DNA from: Phapecoctavirus DIJ07P2
Direction: 5' to 3' (one strand)
Sequence record: OZ035771.1
DNA: 64,000 nucleotides
Shown here: positions 39,777 through 59,286 of the stretch, one piece after another
Position numbering within the stretch: the stretch's first letter is position 1
Layout: each line of letters opens with the position of its first letter
Made by a program: the position numbers and the translations under genes
The notes under the pieces: generated by a model
Told to the model about the DNA's origin: nothing
Seen by the model: only the letters and a program-made list of their open reading frames with translations
Databases searched by the model: none

Positions 39777-40577
39777 TTATTTGTTTAAATGGTCTTCAAC
39801 CATTTTGATAAAGCCTTCATCACTGAAGACTGTTCCTGCTTTCTCTCGGTAGACAAGCACTCCACGTTCTTCGTAGAGAGTTTGTTCTACAAAATTCAAA
39901 CCTGGGTTAACTACAACCATCTTAACCCCAATATTCAGGGCAGGGAAGAGTTCCCAGTTGAAGTTGATTACTTGGTTAGAGCAGCCTACAACGATAACCA
40001 TATCTTGTGATGTTAGTTGATCCAGTTTGTGATACATGTCTGTGTAGAGCGGTGCATTCTCACCAAAAAACACCACATTAGGCTTCACATATTTGTAATC
40101 GTCTACATCAATAGCTGCGTAACCCACATCTTTGATAATTTTGTTATCAACAACAACTTCTGGCAAGAAACCATGAACGTGCAATATTTCTTCTCTATCG
40201 ATTCCAGCGCGTTCTAATAGATCGTCAACGTTAGTAGTGATGTTAATAATCCTTTCTGCACCGTATTTTTCGAACCATTCTCCAATCTGAAGATGTGCTG
40301 GATTCGGGTCAACTTTCTCTAATTCCACGCGACGTTTATTGTAGAAGTCGTGAGTTTTACGGTAGAGGTTATATCCTTCCACATCTAAGCCACCCATAGC
40401 ATCAGGAATACCCTGTTCTTGCTGATAACCGGCACGGAAGTTGAAAATGTCACAAACCTCAGAAAGATCATAAGAAGACCATAACGCCTCCCCTGAAGAA
40501 GTATCTGTTCTAAAAGCTGGGATACCGCTATCCACAGATAGTCCTGCGCCAGTTATGAATATGACTCTACGCGGCAT
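39777..40577 (-). CDS. SIR2-family (sirtuin-like) NAD-dependent protein, zinc-ribbon-less
   Basis: GAGLSVDSGIPAFR, TTNVDDLLERAG, LHVHG, VVFFGE, VVGCSNQV motifs; no CxxC pairs. Confidence 0.7.
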   Translation of the reverse strand: MPRRVIFITGAGLSVDSGIPAFRTDTSSGEALWSSYDLSEVCDIFNFRAGYQQEQGIPDAMGGLDVEGYNLYRKTHDFYNKRRVELEKVDPNPAHLQIGEWFEKYGAERIINITTNVDDLLERAGIDREEILHVHGFLPEVVVDNKIIKDVGYAAIDVDDYKYVKPNVVFFGENAPLYTDMYHKLDQLTSQDMVIVVGCSNQVINFNWELFPALNIGVKMVVVNPGLNFVEQTLYEERGVLVYREKAGTVFSDEGFIKMVEDHLNK

Positions 40578-41307
40578 AAATCTCCTCCTTATATTTTTCG
40601 CAAATGCTTTTATTTGCAGGTTTATATTTTTCTTTCATCACCTTCAATCTTAGCTTCTCCAGAGCTATAGCACATCTCTCTGGATCGTTGAAACCATATT
40701 TGCAATACGTGGTCTTGTCAAACACAAACTTGAAAAAGAATGTTCTCTCTCTTGTTGCCACAAACACACAACTTAATCCTGAAGTGTTATCTATACGCTT
40801 CTTTTCTTTTTTGATATAAGATCCTTTCAAAATTTCTTGTTTTGCTAAAGCTCTAGCTACAATAGCTTCCTCTTTAGTTTTGAAACCTGAAACAGAGAAA
40901 GTTTCTTGGTTGTAGTTTATAACCCAAAGAAAAACACCATCCTTTTCATAAATACCTTCTAACCCATCCACATGTCTATTATTATTATTTAATAAATAGT
41001 TACTATCTAATAAATTACTTTCCGCATTATTAAGTTTATTGCCGTCGTCATGGTCTATAACATCTGGACAGTAATTATGGTACATTTTAAAACAAACTCT
41101 GTGCTCCAAGTATACAATACCATCTATTTTGACATGAGAGTAACCAACTTTATCAATAGTCCCTGCAATCTTCCCTGCGTATCTGCTATTCCACCTTTTG
41201 TTCTCTTTTGTTGTAGAAGGTTTAGGTTTCCAAACAAGACGACCATTCTCCACACTAAACCTTGATAACAAGTAATCTCTATCTGGTAAGGGTTTTCGTT
41301 CTATCAT
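40567..41307 (-). CDS. Freestanding homing endonuclease (HNH with AP2-like DNA-binding domain)
   Basis: HRVCFKMYHN...IDHDDGNKLNN HNH-like motif and VSGFKTKEEAIVARALAKQE AP2-like segment; overlaps SIR2 start by 11 nt. Confidence 0.65.
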   Translation of the reverse strand: MIERKPLPDRDYLLSRFSVENGRLVWKPKPSTTKENKRWNSRYAGKIAGTIDKVGYSHVKIDGIVYLEHRVCFKMYHNYCPDVIDHDDGNKLNNAESNLLDSNYLLNNNNRHVDGLEGIYEKDGVFLWVINYNQETFSVSGFKTKEEAIVARALAKQEILKGSYIKKEKKRIDNTSGLSCVFVATRERTFFFKFVFDKTTYCKYGFNDPERCAIALEKLRLKVMKEKYKPANKSICEKYKEEIYAA

Positions 41308-41792
41308 TCACCCTCGTCCTCCTCAAATGGATCATAAGAATCATATTCGTAAGTATCATCTTCTGAAAATTCTACTTCAAAGTAAATATCAAACTCTGCA
41401 AACAAACGTAGAATGTTGGACATGCTGTAATAGTTATCATAAGCTTCCTCTGCTTCATAGTAGAGGCGTAGCAAACGTTCAGCTTCTTCATCTTCTACCC
41501 ATTTATGATCGACATAGACAGAAGCAGCGTAGGTATTGTAGGCTTGTTCCCGAATATCGACAAGATTTCGGCTCAACAGTTCAGGGAAGTCCTTATAATT
41601 TACATTCAGTCTTCCGCATAACCACAAAGCAATATCATGCCAATCTGCATCCATACCACTAAAGCAACTTGCTTCTTCTCCAAAAGAAGCTTCTCCTAAA
41701 TCACCACTAATACGAACAACATTAGATGAATTATAGCCACACGTTTCACAATCAGAGTAACTATTATGCACATTGATATTTACTTGAAACAT
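41304..41792 (-). CDS. Hypothetical acidic protein (162 aa)
   Basis: ATGA-coupled. Confidence 0.5.
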   Translation of the reverse strand: MFQVNINVHNSYSDCETCGYNSSNVVRISGDLGEASFGEEASCFSGMDADWHDIALWLCGRLNVNYKDFPELLSRNLVDIREQAYNTYAASVYVDHKWVEDEEAERLLRLYYEAEEAYDNYYSMSNILRLFAEFDIYFEVEFSEDDTYEYDSYDPFEEDEGE

Positions 41793-41803
41793 ATTCCCTC
41801 CTA

Positions 41804-41835
41804 TAAAAGAAAAGCCCCCTGAAACAGGAGGCTTT
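41804..41835 (-). terminator. Putative minus-strand terminator hairpin
   Basis: AGCCTCCTG-TTTC-AGGGGGCT then TTTCTTTT on minus strand. Confidence 0.45.
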
Positions 41836-41850
41836 GTTCAGATGTTGGCA

Positions 41851-42501
41851 CTATACCAGACTTTGTAGGTATTTGTCAAGGGCTTCTTGATCACCTTGGC
41901 AAACATAGCAACGAAAGTCTTTAACAGATGGTACTTTATTCTCATCCCAGTCCCACATTATATTACCTTTGTAACGTGAACTAGGGAAGTCGAAAAATGC
42001 TGTATGGGTGATGTGGTGTGGACCGCCCCAAACCTCTGTAAAGGTGAACTGCGGATACGCTACCTTCACCGCCTCCATAAACCAAGCTTTACGAATCAAA
42101 GCATTGTTGATAAAATGCGCGTGACGTTCCATTTCTTCCCAGTTCTTCCACACACTTTTCTCGTCAAGGGAGAATACAAGATCCTCTTCAATATACAAGC
42201 CATCTTCGCATTCATCAAAATCTGCCTCAAGACCTCCTACAGGTTCGTCGAGTCTAACACCATCAAAAGCAGAATATACCCACCAACCATCTTCCAGTAA
42301 GGCTTTGATAGGGACGAAGCCTTTATCAGCATATTGATCGAATTGTTTGACACGGTGGCTTGTGCAGTCTTCAAACTCACATTCTAAACGATATGCACCT
42401 TTTCGACGAGCCTCAAGACCGTGTGTACTGAAAATAACAACACTTCCTTCACCATCATTACGATCTACTTGATAAGCAACCACTGGTTTTGAATTTGACA
42501 T
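41851..42501 (-). CDS. Hypothetical protein (216 aa)
   Basis: ORF in operon. Confidence 0.55.
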   Translation of the reverse strand: MSNSKPVVAYQVDRNDGEGSVVIFSTHGLEARRKGAYRLECEFEDCTSHRVKQFDQYADKGFVPIKALLEDGWWVYSAFDGVRLDEPVGGLEADFDECEDGLYIEEDLVFSLDEKSVWKNWEEMERHAHFINNALIRKAWFMEAVKVAYPQFTFTEVWGGPHHITHTAFFDFPSSRYKGNIMWDWDENKVPSVKDFRCYVCQGDQEALDKYLQSLV

Positions 42502-43184
42502 TATTTCTCCTTATCTAGAAGATTGTTAGACAAAAACACTGCACGAGCAAAACCACGTGCGGTTAGTGATCTAAGTTGTTTTGTTTTTGCACTAGCTCCA
42601 CCTAAGCTTTTCCAACCCCAGAAGCAGCCTATATGATCTACTGGTTTCTTCACTGGTTGAACAAAACCATTGCCGTGCCAAATACAAGTTTTCTTTGTAT
42701 ACCCATCACGGGTAGGCATTTTAGGATGAAAGCTTCCTTCCTCTTCAAACAAATACCCACCATACTCATAAGGATCAAAGTAAAAATCTGGTTTACGCCA
42801 TAAGGTTGAAAGTTTACCTACTGGGTTCTCAATCATCCAAGGAACATTATATTTGTTACCCAAAGCTTCCACTACACGAATATTAGCTAAAGCTTCATCT
42901 AATTCCTCTGTGCTACGTTCGTGTTTGCTACCACTACCTGCTAACATAGTGCAAGGTGGAAATCCAAAAATAATATCGGGTTTAGGTATTCCATGATCTT
43001 CAGGGTTGAATGTAGAATCTATCCAAGCATTCACATAGGTTATGTTTGGGTGCTCCATCCTAACCTCGTATTTACCGTGATCCCCTTCATCAGCGTTTAC
43101 ACAAAAACACTTGTGACCTGCTTCGGCATAACGTAACACCATGATCCCAGATCCGTCAAACATAGACAAAACTGTTTTACTCAT
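42501..43184 (-). CDS. Short C5-methyltransferase-like protein
   Basis: Motif I-like SMFDGSG, motif IV-like FGFPPC (Pro-Cys), motif VI-like ENPVG; only ~227 aa; start moved to M15 after GGAGGGG RBS. Confidence 0.45.
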   Translation of the reverse strand: MSKTVLSMFDGSGIMVLRYAEAGHKCFCVNADEGDHGKYEVRMEHPNITYVNAWIDSTFNPEDHGIPKPDIIFGFPPCTMLAGSGSKHERSTEELDEALANIRVVEALGNKYNVPWMIENPVGKLSTLWRKPDFYFDPYEYGGYLFEEEGSFHPKMPTRDGYTKKTCIWHGNGFVQPVKKPVDHIGCFWGWKSLGGASAKTKQLRSLTARGFARAVFLSNNLLDKEK

Positions 43185-43575
43185 TACCCCTCCATTCAAG
43201 ACAAGCCATAACTTTACGCCAATCACTTTCTGTTAGGAAGATCTGTTCTGAACTGATCCACAAATCTAAATCTTCTACATCTGGAAGGCGGTAGCGTAAC
43301 TCCAAGAGATCATGTTCTTCAGGAGAAATGTATCCCAAATGTTCTGCCATATCGTGGAACCAAGCCCAACCGTGCATATTTTTAACTACATGCTCTCGTT
43401 GCGTCATGACTTTACGTTTCAGTCCAAACCAAGAAGTGATTACCACTTTACTCTCTCGGAGACGTTTGTCAATAGCCACTGTTTCTTTTTCGATACTCAA
43501 CAACTTCACTCTTGCTTTGTTGAGATCCGCATGTGTTACTTTGAAGTAACTTTGTGACTGATCACACCAACCCAT
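43177..43575 (-). CDS. Hypothetical protein (132 aa)
   Basis: ORF in operon. Confidence 0.5.
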   Translation of the reverse strand: MGWCDQSQSYFKVTHADLNKARVKLLSIEKETVAIDKRLRESKVVITSWFGLKRKVMTQREHVVKNMHGWAWFHDMAEHLGYISPEEHDLLELRYRLPDVEDLDLWISSEQIFLTESDWRKVMACLEWRGNE

Positions 43576-43576
43576 A

Positions 43577-44248
43577 TCAATAACCTCCTTCGTAAGGTTT
43601 CACCTTAGCCCTATCATAATATAACATCTCTGCCTCCTTCCGTTTACGAATAGCTTCTTCTTTACTGTTACCATAGTATAAACTAATATGCTCTCCATTG
43701 ACTCGGATGTATGCAATCCATTTGCCCCTATCTTTTCTGTATTTTACCCCACAAATACCGGATAGATTATCTTTCCTTAGTTTTTGATCATAAGATTGCA
43801 TTGCGAGTGAAGCCCACTCACAGGTTTCTTTGCTATAAACATCAGCAGAATTAATTCTGTTTAAGGTTGTGTTTTGTGGTCTACTACCCATATCCTCAAC
43901 GAAATTCAAAAAACCTAAGTCCCCCTTCTCTAACCATCTACAGCATACAGAAACTCCACTACCTCCATACTTAGGATAATTCGGTGAGTTCTCATTGGTG
44001 CACCTGTCTATCATGGCATTGTAGGAATTATATGTATATCTATCCTCAATGAACTTGTAATGGTAACGCTCACAACCACAAGATTTAGTTTTACCAGATT
44101 TTAATCTTTCGGCTGTAGTAACAAACTTCTCACCGCAATGACAAATACAATTCCATTTTGTAGATCGTCCAGTCTCCTTAATTGCTACATCAAGAACTGT
44201 TATACCATTGAATACCATTCCAGACAGGTTTTCTAATTTCCTCCCCAT
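43577..44248 (-). CDS. Freestanding homing endonuclease-like protein with AP2-like domain
   Basis: Cys cluster CICHCGEKF...SCGCE and ICGVKYRKDRGKWIAYIRVNGEHISLYYGNSKEEAIRKRKE AP2-like segment; start moved to M27. Confidence 0.55.
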   Translation of the reverse strand: MGRKLENLSGMVFNGITVLDVAIKETGRSTKWNCICHCGEKFVTTAERLKSGKTKSCGCERYHYKFIEDRYTYNSYNAMIDRCTNENSPNYPKYGGSGVSVCCRWLEKGDLGFLNFVEDMGSRPQNTTLNRINSADVYSKETCEWASLAMQSYDQKLRKDNLSGICGVKYRKDRGKWIAYIRVNGEHISLYYGNSKEEAIRKRKEAEMLYYDRAKVKPYEGGY

Positions 44249-44249
44249 A

Positions 44250-45185
44250 CTATTCCTCAAAAGGTTTAAGTAAGTGTTTATTAGCGTGGAATCTTTTGAT
44301 GTAATCATCTTCTCCCATACTTTCATAAAGCTTCATCACGACATGGAAGGATTCATAGGCATATTCACGAAACCAACCACTAGTGATAGATGTGCAAACT
44401 TTAGATAAAGCCATCATAAAACTTTGCTTAGGTGTTGGACCTCCGATCTCTTCACCGAAAGGAATTTGTGAACGTTCCAAAGCCAAAACACACGCTTCTT
44501 CATAAACACCTAACAGGCGCACATGTTTTGGTTGAGCAAAAAACTTTTCTTTGCTGGTCATAACTTCACTTCCATCTTTCATATAAGATTTATATGCTGG
44601 AGCATCCATTACCGCGATTGCTTCATGGATAGAATCATGATCATAAACATACGGAACCTCATCACCTTTAAAGAAGTCTTTACTTTTTACGTTTAAGTTC
44701 GGATGAGAGTAAGTGTATGTTTCTTTCTCACGCAACTCATAAATACTCTTAAGATTTTCTGGGATCTTTGCGCCCAGTGACCGCATGAAATGAATATCTT
44801 TCATAGTTTTAAAGAAGTGAGGACTATCCTTTTTAAAACGATGACTCATTTTAAGAAGGTAGAGCACATCTAAAGGAGCAACAACATGTCCAGCGTAAGT
44901 TCGACGAACATCATCAGAATCTTCACAATAACTAATCAAAGCTTCTGTGCTATCTCCTTGAGAAGCAATATCGTATTCCAAATGTGCACCAGCTATCATT
45001 TTGACGTGGCCTTTGTTCCCTTTACGTTCTACAAGTTCAACAAACTCGTCTTGAGAGAACATTTTTGATAATTCTTCCCACTCTTGTTCTGTACAGAGAT
45101 AATCTAAATCTACACAAGGGCGATACAAGTCTTTTCCCATGTCCATAGCATGAATTTGTAATGCACGGCTACCAATTAACACCAT
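44250..45185 (-). CDS. Hypothetical protein with possible Pol-beta-type nucleotidyltransferase motif
   Basis: LIGSRALQIHAMDMGKDLYRPCVDLDY loosely resembles GS...D.D signature; speculative. Confidence 0.4.
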   Translation of the reverse strand: MVLIGSRALQIHAMDMGKDLYRPCVDLDYLCTEQEWEELSKMFSQDEFVELVERKGNKGHVKMIAGAHLEYDIASQGDSTEALISYCEDSDDVRRTYAGHVVAPLDVLYLLKMSHRFKKDSPHFFKTMKDIHFMRSLGAKIPENLKSIYELREKETYTYSHPNLNVKSKDFFKGDEVPYVYDHDSIHEAIAVMDAPAYKSYMKDGSEVMTSKEKFFAQPKHVRLLGVYEEACVLALERSQIPFGEEIGGPTPKQSFMMALSKVCTSITSGWFREYAYESFHVVMKLYESMGEDDYIKRFHANKHLLKPFEE

Positions 45186-45245
45186 AATATTTCTCCTCTA
45201 TTGGTTGATAGGTTAAGTTTATCAAGCTTCCAGATTTCTGTCAAT

Positions 45246-45266
45246 AAAAAACCCGCCGAAGCGGGT
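45246..45266 (-). terminator. Intrinsic terminator on minus strand (ACCCGC-TTCG-GCGGGT + T-tract)
   Basis: Third copy of the same hairpin as 16018/39114, inverted. Confidence 0.6.
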
Positions 45267-45275
45267 TATTATTTA

Positions 45276-45548
45276 CTAACACATTGAGGAAGAAGAGATC
45301 CAAACACCTCTTGTGGTTAAACCATTTTCATCCAACTCTACACCATAATCTTCACAAATGAAATCAATATAGTGATCTGCGGCTGGCGTTCCTGTAGGGT
45401 AATAAGTTTCTCCGTTACCGTAGTCACCTATCCAAGCTTGTTCCTGAAACTGTTCACAAAGTTCTTCGATTTCCTTACGAAACTTTCTTTGTGCTTGTTC
45501 CATCTCTTTAACTTTCTTTTTTATCAGCAGTTCGCCTTCAGACTCCAC
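45276..45548 (-). CDS. Small acidic protein, W-SSS-C-tail family member 1
   Basis: Ends ...GVWISSSSMC. Confidence 0.55.
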   Translation of the reverse strand: MESEGELLIKKKVKEMEQAQRKFRKEIEELCEQFQEQAWIGDYGNGETYYPTGTPAADHYIDFICEDYGVELDENGLTTRGVWISSSSMC

Positions 45549-45557
45549 AATCTCTCC

Positions 45558-45773
45558 TTAACAGCTACTACTGTGCCAAACGCCTTGAGAATTAACGACG
45601 AAACCATCATCACCTTCACCATAACAAGAAGAGGATTGCCAATCTTCAAAACAGATTGCGTTATCTTCTAAACTAAGACCAAAACCAGCATCTTCAGCTT
45701 CTTTTGTAAGTTCGTCCACTAAAGCCATAATAGCTTGGGCTTTTTCAGTTAATTCTTCAACATTACGATCACT
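45558..45773 (-). CDS. Small acidic protein, W-SSS-C-tail family member 2
   Basis: Start moved to MSDRNVEEL after GGAGGAG RBS; internal EDWQSSSC and C-terminal GVWHSSSC. Confidence 0.55.
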   Translation of the reverse strand, partial: SDRNVEELTEKAQAIMALVDELTKEAEDAGFGLSLEDNAICFEDWQSSSCYGEGDDGFVVNSQGVWHSSSC

Positions 45774-45775
45774 CA

Positions 45776-46051
45776 TTAGTATTTCTCCTCCGGTTGGAAA
45801 ACTGAACGACAAGCCCACATACTAGCTTCTTTTAAATGTTTAATAGCACAACGGATTTGATCAATACGCTCGTATGCAACATCTAATTCTTTTTCTGTGC
45901 CGTCAAAAGACCCATGATATGCTTCACAATACTCTTCCTCTAAAGCTTTGAAGATTAAACCTAAACGCTCTTCTGCATCTTTAATAGCGTTAACCTTGCC
46001 AATCTTATCGTCAGTATGCGCCTTATAACCTTTGATATCTTCGATTCCCAC
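45776..46051 (-). CDS. Hypothetical protein (about 91 aa, GTG start)
   Basis: AGGAGG RBS 5 nt before GTG. Confidence 0.45.
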   Translation of the reverse strand: MGIEDIKGYKAHTDDKIGKVNAIKDAEERLGLIFKALEEEYCEAYHGSFDGTEKELDVAYERIDQIRCAIKHLKEASMWACRSVFQPEEKY

Positions 46052-46062
46052 TTTACCTCCTA

Positions 46063-46260
46063 TTAACAACTTAAAGAAGATGGATGCCAATTTGTCCCAG
46101 TATTCTCATTTTCATCTTCTGGATCATAATAACCACCCATCCCATATTCAGGGGAGAAACGGAAACCTTCTCCAGTCTCGTCTGCTAACTGCTCTGCTTC
46201 CGCTAAAGCATCATAAGCTGCTTTTACGGCTTCTTCTACTGTTTTAAACTTGGTCGTCAT
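46063..46260 (-). CDS. Small acidic protein, W-SSS-C-tail family member 3
   Basis: Ends ...TNWHPSSLSC; GGAGAGGAG RBS. Confidence 0.55.
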   Translation of the reverse strand: MTTKFKTVEEAVKAAYDALAEAEQLADETGEGFRFSPEYGMGGYYDPEDENENTGTNWHPSSLSC

Positions 46261-48981: not shown

Positions 48982-48991
48982 TCCTTCCTCC

Positions 48992-49773: not shown

Positions 49774-49783
49774 AATCCCTCCT

Positions 49784-50258: not shown

Positions 50259-50270
50259 AGTTCACACTCC

Positions 50271-51198: not shown

Positions 51199-51216
51199 TA
51201 TTAATCTCCTATGTTT

Positions 51217-51238
51217 AAGAAATGCCCCCGAAGGGGCA
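51217..51238 (-). terminator. Minus-strand terminator (TGCCCC-TTCG-GGGGCA + T-tract)
   Basis: Between HslV-like stop and next RBS. Confidence 0.5.
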
Positions 51239-51243
51239 GTTTG

Positions 51244-52439: not shown

Positions 52440-52471
52440 TCCTCCTTATAAATGGCTTCCCTGCCACGTTA

Positions 52472-53230
52472 TTAAATAAACACTTCAGTAATCAGTTTAG
52501 ACAAACGTCCACGTTTATTATCGTCCGTTGTCAGTTCAACATATCCAATAAAATCTACAATTGGCTCACGAACACCTTCTTCATTTTCTGGATATAAAAG
52601 TTCCAAAATTTGATGCAGACCATTGCTACGTTTTTTAATTGCATATGTCTGGCGAACATCGCCTAATACAATAACATGCGTATTAATACCTGCACGTTCA
52701 ATAAGAAGTTTAAGTGTTTCTGTTGACATAAGTTGTGCTTCGTCAATAATGACAATTGTATTATCCAGGGTAGCTCCCAACAAATAGTTAGGAATATTCA
52801 ATTCGATCTTACCTGATCCAATATCATTTTCCAATTTATTGGCTGTCATGAATTGCTGGAAAATACGTTTTGTAGATTCGTAGTGTGCTGCTAGTTTATC
52901 TGTTTTATCCCCAGACAAGAAACCAATCTGGTCATCTCCGACTTCAGTAGGGTTCTTGATAAAAAGTAGTTTACGGAAGTCTCCTGAACGAAGCATCTGC
53001 AAAGCTTTCCATAAAGCAACAGAGGTTTTACCAGTCCCTGCCGGAGCATTTACAACAGTCAGATCATTCCAAATCATGCTTTGAACAATCTTATTTTGGT
53101 CCCCTTCAGGCATAAATTCATCTAAACGGTAATCGTCATTACCTACCGCTTTTGCTGCATAACGGCTTTCAATCTTTGCTGAATTAGCCAGTTTCTGCCG
53201 TTGTGTTTTAGCTGCGGTTTTATTTCCCAT
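52472..53230 (-). CDS. phoH: PhoH-like ATPase
   Basis: Walker A PAGTGKTS and Walker B VIIDEAQ; start moved to MGNK after AAGGAG. Confidence 0.85.
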   Translation of the reverse strand: MGNKTAAKTQRQKLANSAKIESRYAAKAVGNDDYRLDEFMPEGDQNKIVQSMIWNDLTVVNAPAGTGKTSVALWKALQMLRSGDFRKLLFIKNPTEVGDDQIGFLSGDKTDKLAAHYESTKRIFQQFMTANKLENDIGSGKIELNIPNYLLGATLDNTIVIIDEAQLMSTETLKLLIERAGINTHVIVLGDVRQTYAIKKRSNGLHQILELLYPENEEGVREPIVDFIGYVELTTDDNKRGRLSKLITEVFI

Positions 53231-53246
53231 AGTAGCACTCCTTTTA

Positions 53247-53266
53247 GAAGGGGCCGAAGCCCCTTT
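53247..53266 (-). promoter_or_regulatory. Conserved GGGGC-CGAA-GCCCC stem-loop between lysozyme and phoH
   Basis: Same hairpin as at 39754 and 58609, here without minus-strand T-tract. Confidence 0.4.
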
Positions 53267-53267
53267 A

Positions 53268-53768
53268 TTAGTTGTAAGCATCTAAAGTTCCAGAAGTCAG
53301 AACTTTAATTACTCGTTCAGCACGGTTTGGCGTCTGGCTATACCATCGGCTTTTACGCATGTTTTTACCTGCTTGAGTATAATATGCATTGCTGATTAAA
53401 GTCAAGCTATTTTTAAACCCTTCAGCACCTTTTAACCCCAACTGGAAAACCATGTTGATTATTCCCAATTTACGAGTATCACTCACCTTATCATAGATTG
53501 GTGATAAGATAGCACTGTTTTTTATGTCTCTCTTCACTTTTGCAACATCGTCAGCAAAGATTTGACGGGCTTCTTTTTCTGTGATAACTCCATTGGTCTT
53601 ACGACCAAGGAGATTATCTAAGATTTGAATAGCCTTTGCTTTATCTTTTATTTTAGTCAGAAGGTGTCCTATGCCGACTGTCCAATAACCAAGATGGTCT
53701 TGATAAACAGTAAGCTTCAGTCCTTCATCGACTCGTAGCATATCAAACTCATCTACTACTTTAGCCAT
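53268..53768 (-). CDS. T4-type lysozyme (endolysin)
   Basis: FDMLRVDEGLKLTVYQDHLGYWTVGIGHLLTK and NMVFQLG...SRWYSQTPNRAERVI closely parallel T4 lysozyme as recalled. Confidence 0.9.
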   Translation of the reverse strand: MAKVVDEFDMLRVDEGLKLTVYQDHLGYWTVGIGHLLTKIKDKAKAIQILDNLLGRKTNGVITEKEARQIFADDVAKVKRDIKNSAILSPIYDKVSDTRKLGIINMVFQLGLKGAEGFKNSLTLISNAYYTQAGKNMRKSRWYSQTPNRAERVIKVLTSGTLDAYN

Positions 53769-53775
53769 TTACTTC

Positions 53776-53925
53776 CTATTCGTCATCTCCTACTCCGTGA
53801 TCCAACTCGTTAAACAACAGGTGTTCTGGAGAAGTTTCACGTTTTGGTTTCGTTTTCTTTATGTTGGACTTCAGCTCATTTGCCAAAGCACGAGAAAAGA
53901 TCTTACGTTTCTGTTTACTTTTCAT
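53776..53925 (-). CDS. Small basic protein (49 aa), self-derived
   Basis: MKSKQKRKIFSRALANELKSNIKKTKPKRETSPEHLLFNELDHGVGDDE. Confidence 0.35.
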   Translation of the reverse strand: MKSKQKRKIFSRALANELKSNIKKTKPKRETSPEHLLFNELDHGVGDDE

Positions 53926-53930
53926 AATTG

Positions 53931-54191
53931 TTACTCCGCAATTTGAGCCATGAGATCACGCAGTTCGGTAAAACCGCCTACGTATGTTACCTCCCCGTTC
54001 ACTTCAGACAGAATTTGTGGAAATGTGCGTGGAGGAACTCCGGTAAGATCAACAACTGTTTTAGTCATTGATTCTAAATCGTAGTCTTGGTCAAGACTTA
54101 AATATTCAAACTGTTTATTGCGCATGGTTAATAGTTGTTTTGACATTTCGCAAAATTGACAGTTAGGTTTACCAAAAATTACAAATTCCAT
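53931..54191 (-). CDS. Glutaredoxin/thioredoxin-like redox protein (probable RNR reductant)
   Basis: 86 aa with CQFC active-site motif; lies between rmlD and lysozyme in the nrd operon. Confidence 0.6.
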   Translation of the reverse strand: MEFVIFGKPNCQFCEMSKQLLTMRNKQFEYLSLDQDYDLESMTKTVVDLTGVPPRTFPQILSEVNGEVTYVGGFTELRDLMAQIAE

Positions 54192-55033
54192 TACCTCTCC
54201 TTATTAAGTAATACTGCTAAAGACCGTTCAATACCTTTATTTAAATCTGATTTTGTAAGATAGTGACTGGTTACTAATTGTGACTTCACCGGACGTGCTG
54301 CTGGAGCATTATAGGTTGAAGCTGATACCGCCGATATCTTAACAGGTTCTGGCATCTGTGTCAAGATCTTTTCCGCAAACTCCGCCCAAGAAATAAGATG
54401 GCTTCCTGCAAAATGGTAAGTCTTTACAGATCTTGACCAACCTGTTTTTAATACTTCAAAAATAGCTTCTGCTAAATCTGGGGCATATGTTGGACAAGAG
54501 AACTGATCAGCAACAATAATAAAATCACGTTGTCCATCATTATAGCGAGACAACATGGTTTTTAGAAAGTTATTTCCAAATTCACTATATACAGACGCTG
54601 TTCGAATAATATATGCGTTTGGGTTAACTCCTCGCACCATTTTTTCACCGAGTTCTTTCGTATACCCATAATTGTTTATCGGGTTAGGTGTAGTGTCTTC
54701 AAAAATAGGATGAGAATAATTAAAAATATAGTCTGTAGAAATATGCACAAAATCAATTTTAAGTTTGCTGCACACTGCCGCAATATTTGCAGGGCCATAG
54801 GCATTAACAGCCAAAGCAGTAGCAAAATCCTGTTCTGCTTTATCTACAGCCGTATAAGCAGCGCAATTAATAACACCATCTACATAATCTTCAACAATAG
54901 CGTTTCGCACAGCTTCAAAATTTGTAATATCTACACGTTCTTTAGGATAAATTAAAGACACATTTGAAGGAGCCACTTTACGTAAAGCTTGTCCCAGTTG
55001 TCCATTACCACCCAATACCAGATATGTTAGCAT
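54191..55033 (-). CDS. rmlD: dTDP-4-dehydrorhamnose reductase
   Basis: LVLGGNGQLG Rossmann motif, STDYIF and YGYTK motifs. Confidence 0.8.
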   Translation of the reverse strand: MLTYLVLGGNGQLGQALRKVAPSNVSLIYPKERVDITNFEAVRNAIVEDYVDGVINCAAYTAVDKAEQDFATALAVNAYGPANIAAVCSKLKIDFVHISTDYIFNYSHPIFEDTTPNPINNYGYTKELGEKMVRGVNPNAYIIRTASVYSEFGNNFLKTMLSRYNDGQRDFIIVADQFSCPTYAPDLAEAIFEVLKTGWSRSVKTYHFAGSHLISWAEFAEKILTQMPEPVKISAVSASTYNAPAARPVKSQLVTSHYLTKSDLNKGIERSLAVLLNKER

Positions 55034-55593
55034 ACACCCTCGCTACGTAGCTGTTGAAAAGACTTAGCCATTGCATCTTTTGTTGATAAGATAGGTTTAA
55101 AATCTTCGTCAAAAATCATATCGAAGCCCCAATCAATCCCTATATCAGGATCATCCCAACGTAAACTTTGTTCGCTGGAAGGGTCGTATGGAGTTGTGCA
55201 TTTGTATTCGAAGATAGCATCCATACTCAACACTATAAAACCATGCGCCAAACCAGGTGGAAGCCAGAACTGTGTATGGTGTCGTGCACGAAGAACAACA
55301 CCGTCCCAAGCACCGTAAGTAGGACTATCTTTACGTAGGTCTACAGCGAAATCCAATACTTCCCCACTTACACAACGAACAAGCTTACCTTGCGGATTAT
55401 TTGTTTGAAAGTGCATTCCTCGCAAAACACCGAAGTTTGATTTAGACATGTTATCTTGAACGAAAGTTTGTCTACCGATGATATCTTCGTATTTTTGTTC
55501 ATTATATGTTTCTAAAAAGAAACCACGATCATCTTTATAAACGTCTGGTTTGATAATTACCGCACCTTCAATTTTTGTTTTTTCTACTTTCAT
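55027..55593 (-). CDS. rmlC: dTDP-4-dehydrorhamnose 3,5-epimerase
   Basis: KIEGAVIIKPDVYKDDRGFF, GMHFQ, WLPPGLAHGF cupin motifs; start moved to MKVEKTK after GGAGAG. Confidence 0.8.
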   Translation of the reverse strand: MKVEKTKIEGAVIIKPDVYKDDRGFFLETYNEQKYEDIIGRQTFVQDNMSKSNFGVLRGMHFQTNNPQGKLVRCVSGEVLDFAVDLRKDSPTYGAWDGVVLRARHHTQFWLPPGLAHGFIVLSMDAIFEYKCTTPYDPSSEQSLRWDDPDIGIDWGFDMIFDEDFKPILSTKDAMAKSFQQLRSEGVC

Positions 55594-55737
55594 TTTCTCT
55601 CCGCTAATTTGAGTAGGTATTGCCCGTACTCTGTTTTCTTCAGTGAGTTTCCATGATATACCAAAGTCTCTAAAGAAATCCACCCTTTTTTGAAAGCAAT
55701 TTCTTCCAGGCACGCAATCTTCAACCCTTGACGGTTC

Positions 55738-56658
55738 TCAATAGTTTGCACTCCAACCCAGTTCAGACTCTATCTTAGAAGGATTGATTTCATAACGCAA
55801 GTCATGCCCTTTACGATCTTCAACAAAAGTTATCAAGTTGGAAGAAGGGTAGGTTCCTGCTTCTGGATGTACAGCATCCATGTAGTCACAAACCATATAG
55901 ATGATCTCCATATTGGTTTTGGGATTACGTGTTCCCACATTATACGTTTTACCTGGTTCTCCACCTGTTGCCACTTGAAGAATAGCTCGCGCATGATCCT
56001 CAACAAAAAGCCAGTCTCGCACCTGATCGCCTTTACCATACACCGGAATCTCTTTATTCGTCAAGATACTTGTGATGATTTTTGGGATCAGCTTTTCTGG
56101 ATGTTGATAGGGTCCAAAGTTATTGGAGCAGTTGGTTATCACAACAGGCAAATCGTAGGTACGGTGCCAAGCTTTCACAAGATGGTCAGATGCTGCCTTA
56201 GACGCACTGTATGGGCTTGAAGGGGCATAAGCTGTCTCTTCGGTAAAGGGAACGCCAGAGTCTGCCATATCGCCGTACACTTCGTCTGTGGAGACGTGTA
56301 CGAACATCTTCAGTTTATTCTTTGGGAGGAGCCTTGCAGCTTCCAATAAATTGTATGTACCAATAATATTGGAGTCGATGAAAACTCGTGGATTCTTGAT
56401 AGAATTATCCACATGACTCTCTGCCGCTAAGTGAATGATGAAATCGGGATTGCACTCTACTACTAAACTTTTTACTTGGGCTTCGTTTGCCAAATCTGTC
56501 ATGCTTAGTTTAACGTGAGTGATATCGCCTACATTCTCAATATCTGCTGCATAGCTCATCTTATCAACGACAAAAACTTCGTTATTAGGATCTTGACAAA
56601 GAGAGCGCACCACGGCACTCCCAATAAAACCAAGACCACCTGTTACCAGATAGCGCAT
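55738..56658 (-). CDS. rmlB: dTDP-glucose 4,6-dehydratase
   Basis: MRYLVTGGLGFIGS, YSASKAASDHLV (YxxxK), HVSTDEVYG. Confidence 0.85.
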   Translation of the reverse strand: MRYLVTGGLGFIGSAVVRSLCQDPNNEVFVVDKMSYAADIENVGDITHVKLSMTDLANEAQVKSLVVECNPDFIIHLAAESHVDNSIKNPRVFIDSNIIGTYNLLEAARLLPKNKLKMFVHVSTDEVYGDMADSGVPFTEETAYAPSSPYSASKAASDHLVKAWHRTYDLPVVITNCSNNFGPYQHPEKLIPKIITSILTNKEIPVYGKGDQVRDWLFVEDHARAILQVATGGEPGKTYNVGTRNPKTNMEIIYMVCDYMDAVHPEAGTYPSSNLITFVEDRKGHDLRYEINPSKIESELGWSANY

Positions 56659-56667
56659 CAGTTCTCC

Positions 56668-56994
56668 TTACCAGACGTTTTGTGATACTAATGTTTCAGT
56701 TTCAATATTATACTTATTAAGCAGTTCAAAATAGATCTCATTCGCTTTTTTATTTAAGCTTGTGAGGTCTATGGCACAAGCACCACAGCCGCTACACAGC
56801 TTGACACCGAAGACACAATCTTCAGGATCTGCATCGTACCACGGGGAAATGTTTTCCAAGCCCAAACCTTCGCAGAGAAACCAATTAAAGTCCCCATCGA
56901 ACTGGTCTTCAACTTGTGGGTCGTCTCCAAATATTTCTTTCCATTTATCATATGGTGCACCCTGTAACATACGCCATTCGATATCAATACCCAT
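56668..56994 (-). CDS. Cys-containing small protein (108 aa)
   Basis: CSGCGAC cluster; upstream of rmlB. Confidence 0.5.
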   Translation of the reverse strand: MGIDIEWRMLQGAPYDKWKEIFGDDPQVEDQFDGDFNWFLCEGLGLENISPWYDADPEDCVFGVKLCSGCGACAIDLTSLNKKANEIYFELLNKYNIETETLVSQNVW

Positions 56995-57148
56995 TATTCA
57001 TCTCCTCCTCTTCTTGAGCAGCTTTAATAATTGCTTCATAAATATCGTAAGCAATACCTCCACAACATCTAGCTTCGAAAGCTATTGCTTCTGCAATGTG
57101 ATCTGTTAATTCTCGTGGAATGCGGACATACTCTTTTTCACTCTCCAT
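56984..57148 (-). CDS. Small protein (54 aa), self-derived
   Basis: MESEKEYVRIPRELTDHIAEAIAFEARCCGGIAYDIYEAIIKAAQEEEEMNNGY; overlaps both neighbours. Confidence 0.4.
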   Translation of the reverse strand: MESEKEYVRIPRELTDHIAEAIAFEARCCGGIAYDIYEAIIKAAQEEEEMNNGY

Positions 57149-57290
57149 CTTCTACCTCCAACCCTTCTTTTTCAAAGACTACTACTCGCCCCTCACCATG
57201 ACAATTCAGGCAAGGAAATGTTACCATAATTTCCACTTCCATTTGTCCAGTCCCACCACACACAGGACAAAAAATAAGTTTTTCAGCCAT
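57138..57290 (-). CDS. Zinc-ribbon micro-protein (50 aa), self-derived
   Basis: AGGAGG RBS; CPVCGG...CLNCHG two CxxC pairs; TAATG overlap with upstream stop. Confidence 0.45.
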   Translation of the reverse strand: MAEKLIFCPVCGGTGQMEVEIMVTFPCLNCHGEGRVVVFEKEGLEVEDGE

Positions 57291-57499
57291 TATTCCTCCT
57301 TAATTATTTCAAACTTGGCAACACCATTTACAATAATATGACCACAAGACATAACTCCTAGCCAAGGATCGCCGTTTTTCTTCAGGCGTTTACCGAATAC
57401 ATCACAAAAACCATTCTTCATTTCAGAGGCTTCATAAGAAGCCCCTTTATCAAAAACGTCTTTGAATGTGTCGATTATACCAACACATTTCAAAATCAT
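57290..57499 (-). CDS. Hypothetical protein (69 aa)
   Basis: ORF just downstream of nrdB. Confidence 0.5.
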   Translation of the reverse strand: MILKCVGIIDTFKDVFDKGASYEASEMKNGFCDVFGKRLKKNGDPWLGVMSCGHIIVNGVAKFEIIKEE

Positions 57500-58584
57500 T
57501 CGAAGTCAAGCTCCTCATCATCAGAGAGATCTTTGTTAGCTGAATTTAATTTGTAGTTAGTTAACTGAATCTCTTGGGCTGCTGACTGAATCAAATCAGG
57601 ATTCAACCATTTTTCCATCCAAGCTAAAGGACTATGTTTAGGTGCTTTAAACTTGGCTTTCATTTTCAATCGACGATAAATAGGAGCAGCATTGAAATAA
57701 ACCCATTGTTTAGACAATTCGGCGTTAAGACCTACAATAAAACGCCCTTCACTAAACAGGTAGTCACACCACTGTTCCTCTTGTTCAACAACAGTGTCGA
57801 GAATCAAAGTCAACTCTTCGATATTGTCTTCGTAAATTTTACGCCAAATTGGGTCATGCATCAATGCATCAATTACAGCATAATCCATCTTAACATGCAA
57901 GATTTCATCTAGCATAATTTTCTGGATCAGTTTACAAGCTCCAACAAACAGTTGTTGTTCTGCCATAGCAAAAGTAGCAGAGAAGGAAGATATAAACTGA
58001 ATACCTTCTAACCCAATCAGGGCTACCATCCCTTTAAGAATCAGCAGTCGAAGTTCATCGTTAGCTTCAATCAATCCTAGAGCATACTTATGACCAGCTT
58101 CTTCCAACTGACCCATGATATCAGCAATGATACCCATACGATTGAAAATTTTATCATTAATCATAATCTGATTGATGACTTCGATTGGATCTGGAGTACA
58201 TTGACGGATTATTTCAGAATACGTTAACGCATGGAGAACTTCCATTTCACTCTGCTTCATCATCATAGCACAGGCTTCATTGTTACTCAAGAATGGAGAG
58301 AACAAAGTGATGATTGATTTTGCAAGAGAATCATTTTCCCATTGGAACGATAAGTTTTTAATCATAACATCATAGTTGTTTTTAGAACAAGCTACGAAAT
58401 CTTTACGTGTCTGATCCAAGTTAACTTCGTTTTCATCCCAATCTTGTGCTTTTTGAAGTTTGTAGAGTTTGTGCATTTCTGGATAAGTCACGTTAACAGA
58501 ATCAAAGATCCCTAATTGTTCCCCTAAAAATACTGGATATTTTCCTGTTTTGTAAACTTCATTGTGTAAATTAATTGCTGCCAT
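57496..58584 (-). CDS. nrdB: Ribonucleotide reductase small subunit (class I)
   Basis: 362 aa with E..H iron-ligand motifs (EMEVLHALTYSE, LEGIQFISSF, EILHVK). Confidence 0.9.
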   Translation of the reverse strand: MAAINLHNEVYKTGKYPVFLGEQLGIFDSVNVTYPEMHKLYKLQKAQDWDENEVNLDQTRKDFVACSKNNYDVMIKNLSFQWENDSLAKSIITLFSPFLSNNEACAMMMKQSEMEVLHALTYSEIIRQCTPDPIEVINQIMINDKIFNRMGIIADIMGQLEEAGHKYALGLIEANDELRLLILKGMVALIGLEGIQFISSFSATFAMAEQQLFVGACKLIQKIMLDEILHVKMDYAVIDALMHDPIWRKIYEDNIEELTLILDTVVEQEEQWCDYLFSEGRFIVGLNAELSKQWVYFNAAPIYRRLKMKAKFKAPKHSPLAWMEKWLNPDLIQSAAQEIQLTNYKLNSANKDLSDDEELDFE

Positions 58585-58601
58585 TTAAAATTCTCCTCGA
58601 T

Positions 58602-58622
58602 AAAAAAGGGGGCCGAAGCCCC
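58602..58622 (-). terminator. Minus-strand terminator (GGGGC-TTCG-GCCCC + TTTTTT)
   Basis: Between endonuclease stop and nrdB RBS. Confidence 0.55.
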
Positions 58623-58629
58623 TTTATAT

Positions 58630-59286
58630 TTAGCCTCGAAACACTGTTTTTGTTTCAGCCAGATGCCAATAGAAATCCGCCTTGTTTACAAGAGTGTTGT
58701 ACACCTCTTGATAAAAATGTTCTTCCTCTTTGTAACGATCCGCTGTTTCCCTGATTGACTTAGCTTTATCCTTTAGCCAAGCGAAGTGTGCCTCTTCCTC
58801 TGTAGCGAAGTAACCTAAATGCTTACCTTTGCTCCCAGAAGCTTTGGCATAAATCTTACCATCTTTCCTAACATGTGCTCCTAGTAAGTATTTTCTTTCA
58901 TACCTCTTAGCATAACTTAAGAGTGTATTTATGTAAGGAGGAACAAACCTACAATATTCAGGACAGTAAACAGTATTTCCTTCAAGAACAAGATCTTTAT
59001 CTAAAACAAAGCCTTCCACGTTATGTTCTTGATACCAGTTATCAAAGTTTGAAAAGGTGAACCAAGCATCACACACGGTAACATCTTTATAACCTGGTCT
59101 AATGTTTTCCATACGATATGCGCGATTAAACATGCCTTTCCAAGCTGCATAGGAAGGATCTATGAATGTATTAACCCTTTTTCCATTGATAACACCACCT
59201 TCCCACAATCTACGTTCAACATCCACAATCAAGGGGATTTCTCCCCTCTCTGTGAGAACGGTAACTTTACGTTTACCCTTCTTCAT
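58630..59286 (-). CDS. Freestanding homing endonuclease-like protein (AP2-like domain) between nrdA and nrdB
   Basis: GKHLGYFATEEEAHFAW AP2-like segment; intergenic position between nrdA and nrdB. Confidence 0.55.
   Translation of the reverse strand: MKKGKRKVTVLTERGEIPLIVDVERRLWEGGVINGKRVNTFIDPSYAAWKGMFNRAYRMENIRPGYKDVTVCDAWFTFSNFDNWYQEHNVEGFVLDKDLVLEGNTVYCPEYCRFVPPYINTLLSYAKRYERKYLLGAHVRKDGKIYAKASGSKGKHLGYFATEEEAHFAWLKDKAKSIRETADRYKEEEHFYQEVYNTLVNKADFYWHLAETKTVFRG

Follow-up and report, generated by a model that had tools for sequence, protein, structure and literature searches.

Three small genes inserted between conserved operon genes of a Phapecoctavirus are probably freestanding elements of the homing endonuclease type

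Small selfish genes wedged between conserved genes are ordinary in large phages, and the question raised by the present locus is whether three short genes of a Phapecoctavirus (phAPEC8-like), an E. coli phage, are elements of this kind and whether they encode nucleases. The window, meaning the whole 64-kb stretch of DNA analyzed, had been described in an initial annotation as holding three freestanding AP2/HNH-type homing endonuclease genes, one of them between nrdA and nrdB. The three open reading frames were confirmed, all on the minus strand, and are here called HEG1, HEG2, and HEG3:

40567-41307, minus strand: HEG1, freestanding endonuclease gene with HNH_3 and AP2 (246 aa)
43577-44248, minus strand: HEG2, gene with Zn knuckle, IPA-type domain, and AP2 (223 aa; PHROG 374, E 1.5e-62)
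58630-59286, minus strand: HEG3, IPA-type and AP2-like gene between nrdA and nrdB (218 aa; PHROG 953, E 2e-56)

The mechanical ORF for HEG2 (43577-44326) is longer than the real gene, whose start was upheld at 44248 because the closest database cluster is 223 aa long and begins MGRK, and because GAGG lies 5 nt before the ATG. The window holds no further paralogues of the three proteins.

Each gene is inserted exactly between two tightly packed operon genes. Among the about 85-87 related records matched by megablast, each is carried by some close relatives and missing from others: HEG1 at 98.7% aa identity or more occurs in only 8 records (6 phages), HEG2 in 2 records (1 phage), and HEG3 alleles of at least 80% aa identity in 20. 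A synteny comparison with relatives lacking the insertions, as proposed earlier, revealed the empty sites: in ZCKP1, sir2 directly adjoins the gene before it and the DUF7275 gene the one after it, while nrdA and nrdB in nepoznato and Schickermooser are split only by a 44-nt spacer with a terminator hairpin. Each gene is embedded in a short stretch of foreign flanking DNA, and diverged homologues in other phages adjoin the same neighbor, namely sir2 for HEG1, the DUF7275 gene for HEG2, and nrdA/nrdB for HEG3. By comparison with close relatives, all three are real insertions, far beyond chance, and presence/absence, foreign flanks, and same-site homologues bear out their description as freestanding, intergenic, mobile HEG-like genes. 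Purifying selection acts on all of them (dN/dS 0.06-0.18). As in T4 mob/seg cassettes, they have no promoter of their own: there is no promoter-like site immediately before any of the three, the best-scoring promoter-like sites precede genes upstream of the HEGs, and the operons containing them are bracketed by terminators. Patchy presence, foreign flanks, site fidelity, and purifying selection are hallmarks of freestanding homing endonuclease genes and of insertion hot spots, and we consider it probable that they are promoter-less selfish genes of the homing endonuclease type, with putative cleavage activity. They belong to already known kinds of element.

HEG1 represents the classical case. 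Its start codon overlaps the preceding gene's stop in the sequence ATGA, it runs 11 nt into the start of sir2, and the protein matches PHROG 99 'HNH endonuclease' (E 2.9e-34). Its parts are as follows:

40984-41112, minus strand: HNH motif region, residues ~66-108 (EHR...IDHDDGNKLNNAESNL)
40828-40974, minus strand: AP2-like DNA-binding domain, residues ~112-160 (hhalign, PDB profile, BLASTP)
40567-40815, minus strand: C-terminal ~80 aa beyond AP2

The Pfam HNH_3 match spans residues 68-99 and scores 22.2 bits, just below the curated cut-off of 24.8, and the family keeps H69, D85-H86, N94, N98, and N107 as conserved columns. The family profile found I-HmuI (PDB 1U3E; E 5.4e-6), an HNH_3 homing endonuclease of Bacillus phage SPO1 that nicks DNA and whose His, Asp-His, and Asn residues are kept in HEG1; I-HmuI, however, is intron-encoded and has another C-terminal DNA-binding region, whereas HEG1 is freestanding with an AP2 domain. 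Against PDB, the same profile matched the AP2 domains of WRI1 and TEM1, and BLASTP aligned the AP2 domains of HEG1 and HEG2 (E 0.009). A second AP2 repeat in HEG1 was considered and is not supported. By these motifs HEG1 is a genuine HNH_3 gene of the I-HmuI kind, carrying a single AP2 domain. It shares its N-terminal HNH and C-terminal AP2 with the HNH-AP2 endonucleases known from phages, ciliates, and cyanobacteria (Magnani et al. 2004, cited in PMC10448857) and differs from them by its extra ~80-aa C-terminal region.

The surroundings of HEG1 record its arrival, as delimited by two features:

41304-41326, minus strand: upstream junction of the HEG1 cassette, with crossover within shared GGAGGACGA
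40455-40577, minus strand: donor-type first ~120 nt of sir2 (identity comparison)

Identity to Justusliebigvirus muut and KKP_3264, taken in 60-nt windows, is 97-100% between 41299 and ~40470, against a backbone identity around HEG1 of only 50-78%; below ~40467 the sequence is 97-100% identical to HEG-less ZCKP1. The sir2 gene (39777-40577) is chimeric, since its start is of Justusliebigvirus type and the part from ~40467 downward of ZCKP1 type. Its first ~120 nt, with 93-100% identity to muut/KKP_3264 and 56-61% to HEG1-less Phapecoctavirus, look like a co-conversion tract. The upstream crossover falls in the 3' terminal part of phrog_9509 (41304-41792). HEG1 has moved horizontally between Phapecoctavirus and Justusliebigvirus, and the breakpoints of this transfer lie tightly around it. 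Diverged phages, too, carry a HEG1 homologue of ~70% aa identity immediately before sir2, and the ECML-183-2 copy of HEG1 carries a 2-bp deletion.

HEG2 begins one base after the stop of the upstream gene and has replaced parts of both neighbors:

44069-44161, minus strand: N-terminal Cys knuckle (WNCICHCG...KSCGC) of CapR-like CxCxC...CxC pattern
43784-44041, minus strand: IPA-type middle domain (YNSYNAMIDRC...LNRINS..YSKETCEWA), a predicted beta-beta-alpha unit
43616-43759, minus strand: AP2 domain
43577-43603, minus strand: relic of the original DUF7275 gene 3' end, GTGAAACCTTACGAAGGAGGTTATTGA, encoding ..VKPYEGGY*
44250-44309, minus strand: replacement 3' end of the DUF7277/DUF7275 gene (44250-45185), arrived with HEG2
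43273-43575, minus strand: divergent 5' part (~300 nt) of the next gene, phrog_16551 (43177-43575)

The 27-nt relic forms the in-frame tail of HEG2, and the next gene still draws its Shine-Dalgarno sequence from it; the empty allele closes with ..VKPFEGGY*, in the same DNA. The flanks were compared with five HEG2-less genomes (55-71% identity over both) and with HEG2-bearing nepoznato. The replacement 3' end is ~70% identical to all HEG2-less alleles and 100% to nepoznato; the divergent downstream stretch shows 55-63% identity to each HEG2-less genome and 100% to nepoznato, a pattern that marks it as a flank co-transferred with HEG2. Orthologues of 61-63% occur in T4-like VR7, vB_EcoM_005, and Aeromonas phage CC2, all directly downstream of a DUF7277/DUF7275 gene that is itself only 43-48% identical to the window's copy.

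HEG3 occupies the ribonucleotide reductase locus, where both neighbors were confirmed by Pfam:

59298-61541, minus strand: nrdA, class Ia RNR large subunit, upstream of HEG3 (Ribonuc_red_lgC, E 1.7e-97)
57496-58584, minus strand: nrdB, RNR small subunit, downstream of HEG3 (Ribonuc_red_sm, E 6.3e-33)
58915-59163, minus strand: HEG3 IPA-type domain (YAAWKGMFNRAY...VLDKDL..YCPEYCRFVPPYIN; profile/alignment evidence)
58729-58890, minus strand: HEG3 AP2-like domain, three strands and a helix (hhalign 95%)
59298-59328, minus strand: recoded last ~10 codons of nrdA (..SEDEGCSACKM*)
58609-58622, minus strand: intrinsic terminator hairpin between HEG3 and nrdB

The insertion lies between the nrdA stop and the hairpin, because the empty allele carries the hairpin too. 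Among the Phapecoctavirus genomes compared, the recoded nrdA tail is present in three HEG3-bearing genomes and in ZCKP1, which retains a HEG3 remnant with a ~500-bp deletion; both HEG3-less genomes lack it and end ..SDGGCEACKM*. The spacer shows four different states among relatives, in agreement with the earlier notion of an insertion hot spot, and the nrdA-nrdB spacer of diverged phages likewise holds HEG3 homologues of 51-62%. When the window is compared with ESCO5, dS is 1.1 for HEG3 and 0.105 for adjacent nrdA. The site is also variably occupied by other short ORFs, among them one of 112 aa (phrog_17458).

The position recalls T4 mobE, a freestanding HNH homing endonuclease gene in the nrdA-nrdB spacer, expressed from the nrdA transcript, whose product nicks nrdB with co-conversion of flanks (Wilson & Edgell 2009, PMC2790892; Edgell et al. 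2010, PMC2988022). HEG3 is likewise a freestanding promoter-less cassette in that spacer; in MobE, however, a clear HNH domain is joined to a separate C-terminal region, whereas HEG3 has AP2 and no canonical HNH, and MobE targets nrdB whereas the recoded flank of HEG3 lies in nrdA. Hef of phage U5, also between nrdA and nrdB, is unlike known homing endonuclease families (Sandegren et al. 2005), and HEG3 shares with it the genomic position and the lack of a recognizable nuclease motif. The 'Hef-like' F-LimIII of LIMEstone1, taken as a proxy for U5 Hef, bears no relation to the IPA profile (hhalign 0.3%); it falls in PHROG 559, as does window ORF 16069-17076.

The nuclease assignment had been AP2/HNH for all three genes. 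An AP2-type DNA-binding domain is supported in each (hhalign, PDB profile search), so that part stands, while HNH holds for HEG1 and not for HEG2 or HEG3; in the profile searches suggested as a check, two of the three genes failed for HNH, and no GIY-YIG domain was found. No HNH or other nuclease model of Pfam/NCBIfam matched HEG2 or HEG3, their HNH models matched 0 of 44 family members, the profile search against PDB returned only AP2 structures and no nuclease, and neither protein gave a significant fold match to a nuclease. The two families form one domain family (hhalign 99.3%, E 1.9e-20). Its middle domain keeps a predicted beta-beta-alpha unit, with an acidic/amide residue and Asn/Gln at the HNH metal-binding positions; in HEG3 the strands span residues 94-96 and 113-115 and the helix 117-122, with D96-K97-D98 and N120 invariant in the family. 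Where HNH has its catalytic (general-base) His, every one of 57 HEG2-family members carries Arg and every one of 15 HEG3-family members Lys; Arg also stands in 171 of 176 motif instances from 150 diverse representatives. Arg131 of HEG2 stands where HNH has His, and Asn replaces the metal-ligand Asp preceding it. The chemistry of HEG2 and HEG3 is uncertain because of this replacement.

Both proteins belong to an atypical class that Barth et al. 2023 termed "IPA-HNH", with AP2 and without canonical HNH. That class comprises HEGs of ICP1 (gp59, gp115/116, gp209), Barbaviruses, and Flaumdraviruses, reported near RNR and polymerase genes, and HHsearch led its authors to place the IPA domain in the HNH superfamily (Barth, Dunham & Seed 2023, PMC10448857). 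HEG2 and HEG3 share the C-terminal AP2, the blindness of Pfam HNH_3 to them, and the vicinity of RNR genes, with HEG2 forming an Arg-type branch. HEG3 matches the gene that immediately follows DNA polymerase in ICP1 (tblastn E 1e-14), with which it has PHROGs 953 and 374 and the motif LDKD..YCPEYCR.VP..IN in common; matches also occur in Rheinheimera and Pseudomonas KIL phages. Compared with that report, Phapecoctavirus is a new host lineage with new target genes, and our alignments show that the catalytic His is absent throughout the family.

A different reading of HEG2 and HEG3 is that they are non-nuclease, sequence-specific DNA-binding proteins of HEG descent, kept to regulate or silence a target, similar to the PLE repressor CapR or to the 'CasPR' silencers with CapR and AP2, and spread only through ordinary recombination or by riding on other nucleases. 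The never-present catalytic His, the missing nuclease match by Pfam, PDB profile, or fold, and the strong purifying selection all speak for it, as do the 2-3 tandem domain copies in many relatives, which suit a DNA-binding module better than a catalytic one. HEG2 in particular has a zinc knuckle (C36/C38/C57/C59 invariant in its family) followed by AP2, the architecture of the purely DNA-binding CasPRs (bioRxiv 10.64898/2026.02.23.707548), but it has an additional conserved ~85-aa domain between the two, and the Pfam CapR model was not detected in it; CasPRs, moreover, were described from Bacillota prophage anti-CRISPR loci and are not site-specific inserts. Diverged homologues in distant phages keep the site next to the same gene, the flanks have been recoded, a relic of the target end persists, a decayed copy exists in ZCKP1, and HEG3 alleles exceed adjacent nrdA tenfold in synonymous divergence, features typical of self-propagating elements and not of a domesticated regulator; the residues retained at the HNH metal sites also speak against this reading, which we regard as unlikely yet deserving of some weight.

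Still less probable is that all three are ordinary accessory genes ('morons') in hypervariable spots, shuffled by general homologous recombination with no targeting of their own. The region is indeed mosaic, with divergent blocks unrelated to the HEGs at 41384-41684, 41884-42400, 45775-46000, and 56700-56900, so that ordinary recombination alone yields part of the insert/flank pattern, and the phrog_17458 ORF comes and goes at the nrdA-nrdB site as well. Against this, the I-HmuI-like HNH motif of HEG1 is intact, its inter-genus transfer had breakpoints hugging the gene, and the HEG2 lineage stays behind the DUF7275 gene across three phage lineages, a position that general recombination cannot explain because DUF7275 genes with only 43-48% aa identity offer too little homology in their DNA.

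For homing endonuclease-type genes, analogy with T4 mob/seg and I-HmuI suggests the following course. In a mixed infection, the protein would bind the HEG-less allele of the neighbor gene via AP2, to which HEG2 would add its Zn knuckle, and would then nick or cut nearby DNA. Phage recombination would mend the break from the HEG-carrying genome, copying the gene with tens to hundreds of flank bases, and the recoded flank would shield that genome against its own enzyme. The likely targets would be the first ~120 nt of sir2 for HEG1, the 3' end of the DUF7275 gene for HEG2, and, for HEG3, the last ~30 nt of nrdA, coding the C-terminal CxxC tail, together with the spacer.

The initial annotation had also counted an intron and an intein among the selfish elements of this genome. 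The intron was not sustained, with no Rfam match anywhere in the window at gathering threshold, and a probable intein is present in the helicase at 4574-7204.

The three endonuclease-like genes, designated HEG1, HEG2, and HEG3, lie in a region that is 90-99% identical at the DNA level to Phapecoctavirus phages (phAPEC8-like, Stephanstirmvirinae), the best matches being nepoznato over 39.5-45.5 kb and nieznany over 57-62 kb. GC content is ~38%, and genes from 39.5 kb onward are encoded on the minus strand. All three proposed ORFs are real, and the identity of the genes surrounding HEG3 was confirmed by Pfam and PHROGs:

40567-41307, minus strand: HEG1, 246 aa
43577-44248, minus strand: HEG2, 223 aa
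58630-59286, minus strand: HEG3, 218 aa, between nrdA and nrdB
59298-61541, minus strand: nrdA (Pfam and PHROGs)
57496-58584, minus strand: nrdB (Pfam and PHROGs)

The mechanical ORF of HEG2 reaches 44326, a start that was dropped for 44248, which agrees better with the homologues, the upstream gene's stop, and a Shine-Dalgarno sequence. No paralogues of the three genes were found elsewhere within the window, and the literature search returned nothing specific on homing endonuclease genes in Phapecoctavirus.

Comparison with related genomes provides strong evidence that all three genes are mobile, each being sporadically present at a single fixed position and flanked by linked foreign sequence of the co-conversion type. 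The synteny check recovered empty sites for each of them. At the HEG1 site, ZCKP1, phAPEC8, ESCO5, and nieznany have sir2 abutting or overlapping the phrog_9509 gene; at the HEG2 site, their DUF7275 gene directly adjoins the phrog_16551 gene. In nepoznato and Schickermooser the nrdA-nrdB gap is 44 nt long and holds one terminator hairpin. HEG1 is present at at least 98.7% protein identity in six phages, with a 2-bp deletion in the ECML-183-2 copy, nepoznato is the sole other carrier of HEG2, and HEG3 alleles at at least 80% identity occur in 20 records. Every informative pair, for each of the three genes, gave a dN/dS between 0.06 and 0.18. The initial annotation had described freestanding selfish elements marking insertion hot spots, a view borne out by presence and absence among relatives, the linked foreign flanks, and homologues at the same sites.

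No promoter-like site was found directly upstream of HEG1, HEG2, or HEG3; the best-scoring sites precede the upstream genes (41850-41879 and 45216-45244), and terminators are located after sir2 and after HEG3. This layout therefore indicates promoter-less cassettes embedded within existing operons, resembling the mob and seg genes of T4, which have been described in the same terms.

The HEG1 tract was mapped by BLAST and 60-nt sliding windows, with the junction read directly from the sequence. From 41299 down to ~40470 the window is 97-100% identical to Justusliebigvirus muut and KKP_3264, whereas the backbone on either side of this block is 50-78% identical to these phages or unalignable. Below ~40467, the window is 97-100% identical to ZCKP1, which lacks HEG1. 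The donor-like block thus ends inside sir2 (39777-40577), making this gene a chimera whose first ~110 nt appear to have arrived with HEG1. The upstream crossover falls within the common sequence GGAGGACGA, where the preceding gene ends, and in nepoznato the donor tract is longer. Homologues of ~70% identity on two metagenomic phage contigs are also situated directly upstream of sir2. These alignments indicate that HEG1 jumped between two genera, carrying a ~110-nt co-conversion tract.

At the HEG2 site both flanks are foreign. Segment 43273-43575 covers the 5' ~100 codons of the gene downstream, and 44250-44309 makes up the closing 20 codons of the DUF7275 gene; here the window is 55-71% identical to all five HEG2-less relatives and identical to nepoznato. 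The HEG2 ORF ends in ..VKPYEGGY*, encoded by DNA that once terminated the DUF7275 gene (empty alleles have ..VKPFEGGY*) and still provides the ribosome-binding site for the next gene, while the DUF7275 gene in the window now has the substitute end ..KPFEE*. This relic, together with the substitute end, places the point of insertion in the final eight codons. Orthologues of HEG2 with 61-63% identity occur in VR7 (Gaprivervirus, T4-like), vB_EcoM_005 (Dhakavirus), and Aeromonas phage CC2 (Ceceduovirus), in each case immediately after a DUF7277/DUF7275 gene only 43-48% identical to that of the window, with different genes following downstream. Within Stephanstirmvirinae and two subfamilies of Straboviridae, the HEG2 lineage has stayed with the DUF7275 gene.

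HEG3 is inserted after the nrdA stop codon and ahead of the spacer hairpin. The C-terminal cysteine pair of class Ia ribonucleotide reductase (RNR) is functionally essential, and essential conserved sequence of this kind is a typical target of homing endonuclease genes. The product of nrdA ends in ..SEDEGCSACKM* in three compared HEG3-bearing Phapecoctavirus genomes and in ZCKP1, which bears a HEG3 remnant, and in ..SDGGCEACKM* in both compared HEG3-less genomes; outside this recoded tail, identity among the compared genomes is 97-100%. Between the window and ESCO5, dS is 1.1 for HEG3 versus 0.105 for the adjacent nrdA, implying that the HEG alleles are older than the backbones carrying them. 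The same nrdA-nrdB position is occupied in more distant phages by homologues with 62% and 51% identity. This position parallels that of T4 mobE (Wilson & Edgell 2009, PMC2790892; Edgell et al. 2010, PMC2988022) and U5 hef, both situated between the same two genes. A homology of HEG3 to Hef found no support in the comparison with a proxy, the 'Hef-like' F-LimIII of LIMEstone1, which proved unrelated (hhalign 0.3%).

The nrdA-nrdB spacer exists in four states: empty, HEG3, a phrog_17458 ORF with a HEG3 remnant, and HEG3 with a phrog_17458 ORF. In ZCKP1, a 112-aa phrog_17458 ORF accompanies a HEG3 remnant with ~500 bp deleted, and EcG1 and ESCO5 carry HEG3 plus this ORF. The phrog_17458 ORF (112/113 aa, no Pfam match) is variably present between HEG3 and nrdB, overlaps the nrdB start, and is absent from the window. 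Its positions in the related-phage loci are as follows:

ZCKP1 (L005), 1866-2412: phrog_17458 ORF beside the HEG3 deletion remnant
L006 and L018, 1872-2210: phrog_17458 ORF
L009, 4691-5032: phrog_17458 ORF

The assignment of all three proteins to an AP2/HNH family holds fully for HEG1, whereas for HEG2 and HEG3 the canonical HNH part fails, with no Pfam HNH match and no catalytic histidine. HEG1 has the beta-beta-alpha-Me signature of a general-base histidine in a D-H pair with conserved asparagines, residues H69, D85-H86, N94, N98, and N107 being invariant or near-invariant in its family alignment. The profile of this alignment matches the HNH motif of I-HmuI (1U3E) with an E-value of 5.4e-6, and HEG1 matches PHROG 99 with an E-value of 2.9e-34. 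Pfam PF13392 (HNH_3) scored 22.2 bits on HEG1, below the cut-off of 24.8 (E 1.1e-4), and the homologues P0093-P0095 carry a precomputed match to this model. C-terminal to the nuclease, residues ~112-160 are AP2-like by hhalign against the AP2 domain of the HEG2 and HEG3 families, and the family profile matches the plant AP2 domains of the WRI1 and TEM1 structures; the Pfam AP2 model gave no match on HEG1. A second AP2 repeat in the C-terminus was unsupported (hhalign 3%). With the HNH motif residues retained as in I-HmuI, HEG1 is best described as an HNH-AP2 endonuclease of the I-HmuI type, and its intact motifs predict nuclease activity.

HEG2 and HEG3 are assigned by homology to the IPA-HNH homing endonuclease genes, a class defined from ICP1 gp59, gp115/116, and gp209 and described as carrying C-terminal AP2 domains, having diverged beyond the reach of the Pfam HNH_3 model, often neighbouring polymerase and RNR genes, and being enriched among Barbaviruses and Flaumdraviruses (Barth et al. 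2023, PMC10448857). In the literature searched, the term 'IPA-HNH' was found in that paper alone. The two families are homologous to each other over the middle (IPA) domain and AP2 (hhalign 99.3%, E 1.9e-20), have a C-terminal AP2 domain, and show the ICP1-type domain relationship without any Pfam HNH match. HEG3 matches an ICP1 ORF just downstream of the DNA polymerase gene (tblastn E 1e-14, common PHROGs 953/374, common motif), which from its position is presumably gp59. HEG3 also matches Rheinheimera (Barba) phages, and HEG2 matches Pseudomonas KIL phages. Among Pfam models, a weak AP2 match was obtained for HEG2 and nothing for HEG3; no Pfam model of the IPA domain exists, NCBIfam gave no match for either protein, and single-sequence PDB searches with the three HEG proteins yielded chance matches only. 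HEG2 resembles the CapR+AP2 'CasPR' silencers (bioRxiv 10.64898/2026.02.23.707548) in combining a Cys knuckle with AP2, the Cys pattern alone agreeing; a CapR homology domain (Pfam PF21817) in HEG2 was rejected, with no match at E <= 0.01 and a match in 1 of 29 HEG2-family members (E 0.0099).

The IPA domain departs from canonical HNH at the catalytic position. In alignments that include true HNH_3-AP2 proteins, L-D/N-R-I-N/D of HEG2 and L-D-K-D of HEG3 align at the HNH V-D-H-I, leaving both proteins without the general-base histidine that closes the first beta strand. The equivalent residue is Lys97 in HEG3, with lysine in 15/15 family members and the ICP1 ORF, and Arg131 in HEG2, with arginine in 57/57 family members. 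At E <= 0.001, the family profile, spanning IPA domain, Zn-knuckle, and AP2 modules, retrieved 242,479 representative clusters; in the top 150 representatives, arginine occupies this position in 171 of 176 motif instances, and histidine never does. HNH models gave no match among 29 HEG2-family and 15 HEG3-family members and 8 typical representatives. Both the acidic or amide residue preceding the histidine equivalent and the Asn/Gln of the helix that follows are retained, and the AlphaFold models of HEG2 and HEG3 are confident (pLDDT 87.8 and 89.9). Many IPA-domain relatives (P0096-P0245) are 400-900 aa long, carry two or three LDRID..NCRW units in tandem, and have as many as a dozen Zn-knuckle repeats.

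HEG2 and HEG3 may cut DNA, and the histidine-less domain is the one point worth an experiment. It is conceivable, though rather improbable, that the IPA domain is no conventional His-Me nuclease but a dead or Lys/Arg-based HNH derivative that still spreads site-specifically without a His-activated cut. Such spread could proceed through DNA binding tight enough to stall replication and so trigger recombination, or through recruitment of another phage nuclease. The 'HNH endonuclease' label given to this very large family in PHROGs and RefSeq rests on no conserved catalytic histidine, and whether and how the family cuts DNA bears on the annotation of thousands of phage genes.

HEG1-HEG3 are new examples of known element types, very similar copies being already present in GenBank as 'hypothetical' or 'HNH endonuclease'. 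For this genome the outcome is mostly housekeeping, allowing three such ORFs to be annotated as freestanding homing-type elements and accounting, through the HEG insertion sites, for why sir2, the DUF7275 gene, and the nrdA tail are locally mosaic. The filled and empty allele pairs at these loci are ready substrates for experiments.

Several other loci of the window were noted:

16069-17076, plus strand: ORF of 335 aa with two Pfam CapR homology domains (E 4e-25)
4574-7204, minus strand: UvrD-type helicase of 876 aa with an insert at ~residues 253-600
1443-3774, minus strand: anaerobic RNR (nrdD-like) gene in two ORFs, 2428-3774 and 1443-2324, separated by a 103-nt gap
32268-32945, plus strand: serine recombinase/resolvase-type gene (Pfam Resolvase, E 5e-18)

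The ORF at 16069-17076 matches PHROG 681 'endonuclease' and PHROG 559, the latter also holding F-LimIII of Dickeya phage LIMEstone1; its locus is allele-variable among relatives, and the ORF probably represents a fourth homing-endonuclease-like gene. The intein mentioned in the initial annotation probably corresponds to the helicase insert, where the Intein_splicing and Hint models fall just below their cut-offs. The intron mentioned there found no counterpart in an Rfam scan of the whole window, which gave zero matches at the gathering threshold. Compared with its PHROG profile, the upstream nrdD-like ORF (2428-3774) contains an additional ~130 residues.

Another hot spot lies just downstream of the thyX-like gene, where related phages carry an HNH_3 ORF or a LAGLIDADG-like ORF:

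L010, 578-1006, and L011, 570-989: occupied sites in related-phage loci
Window, ~62253-62318: equivalent site, empty

Divergent mosaic blocks free of HEGs, relative to close relatives, occur at 41384-41684, 41884-42400, 45775-46000, and 56700-56900, the window allele of 41384-41684 being common to ESCO5 only. The serine recombinase/resolvase-type gene resides in a phage genome of lytic type.
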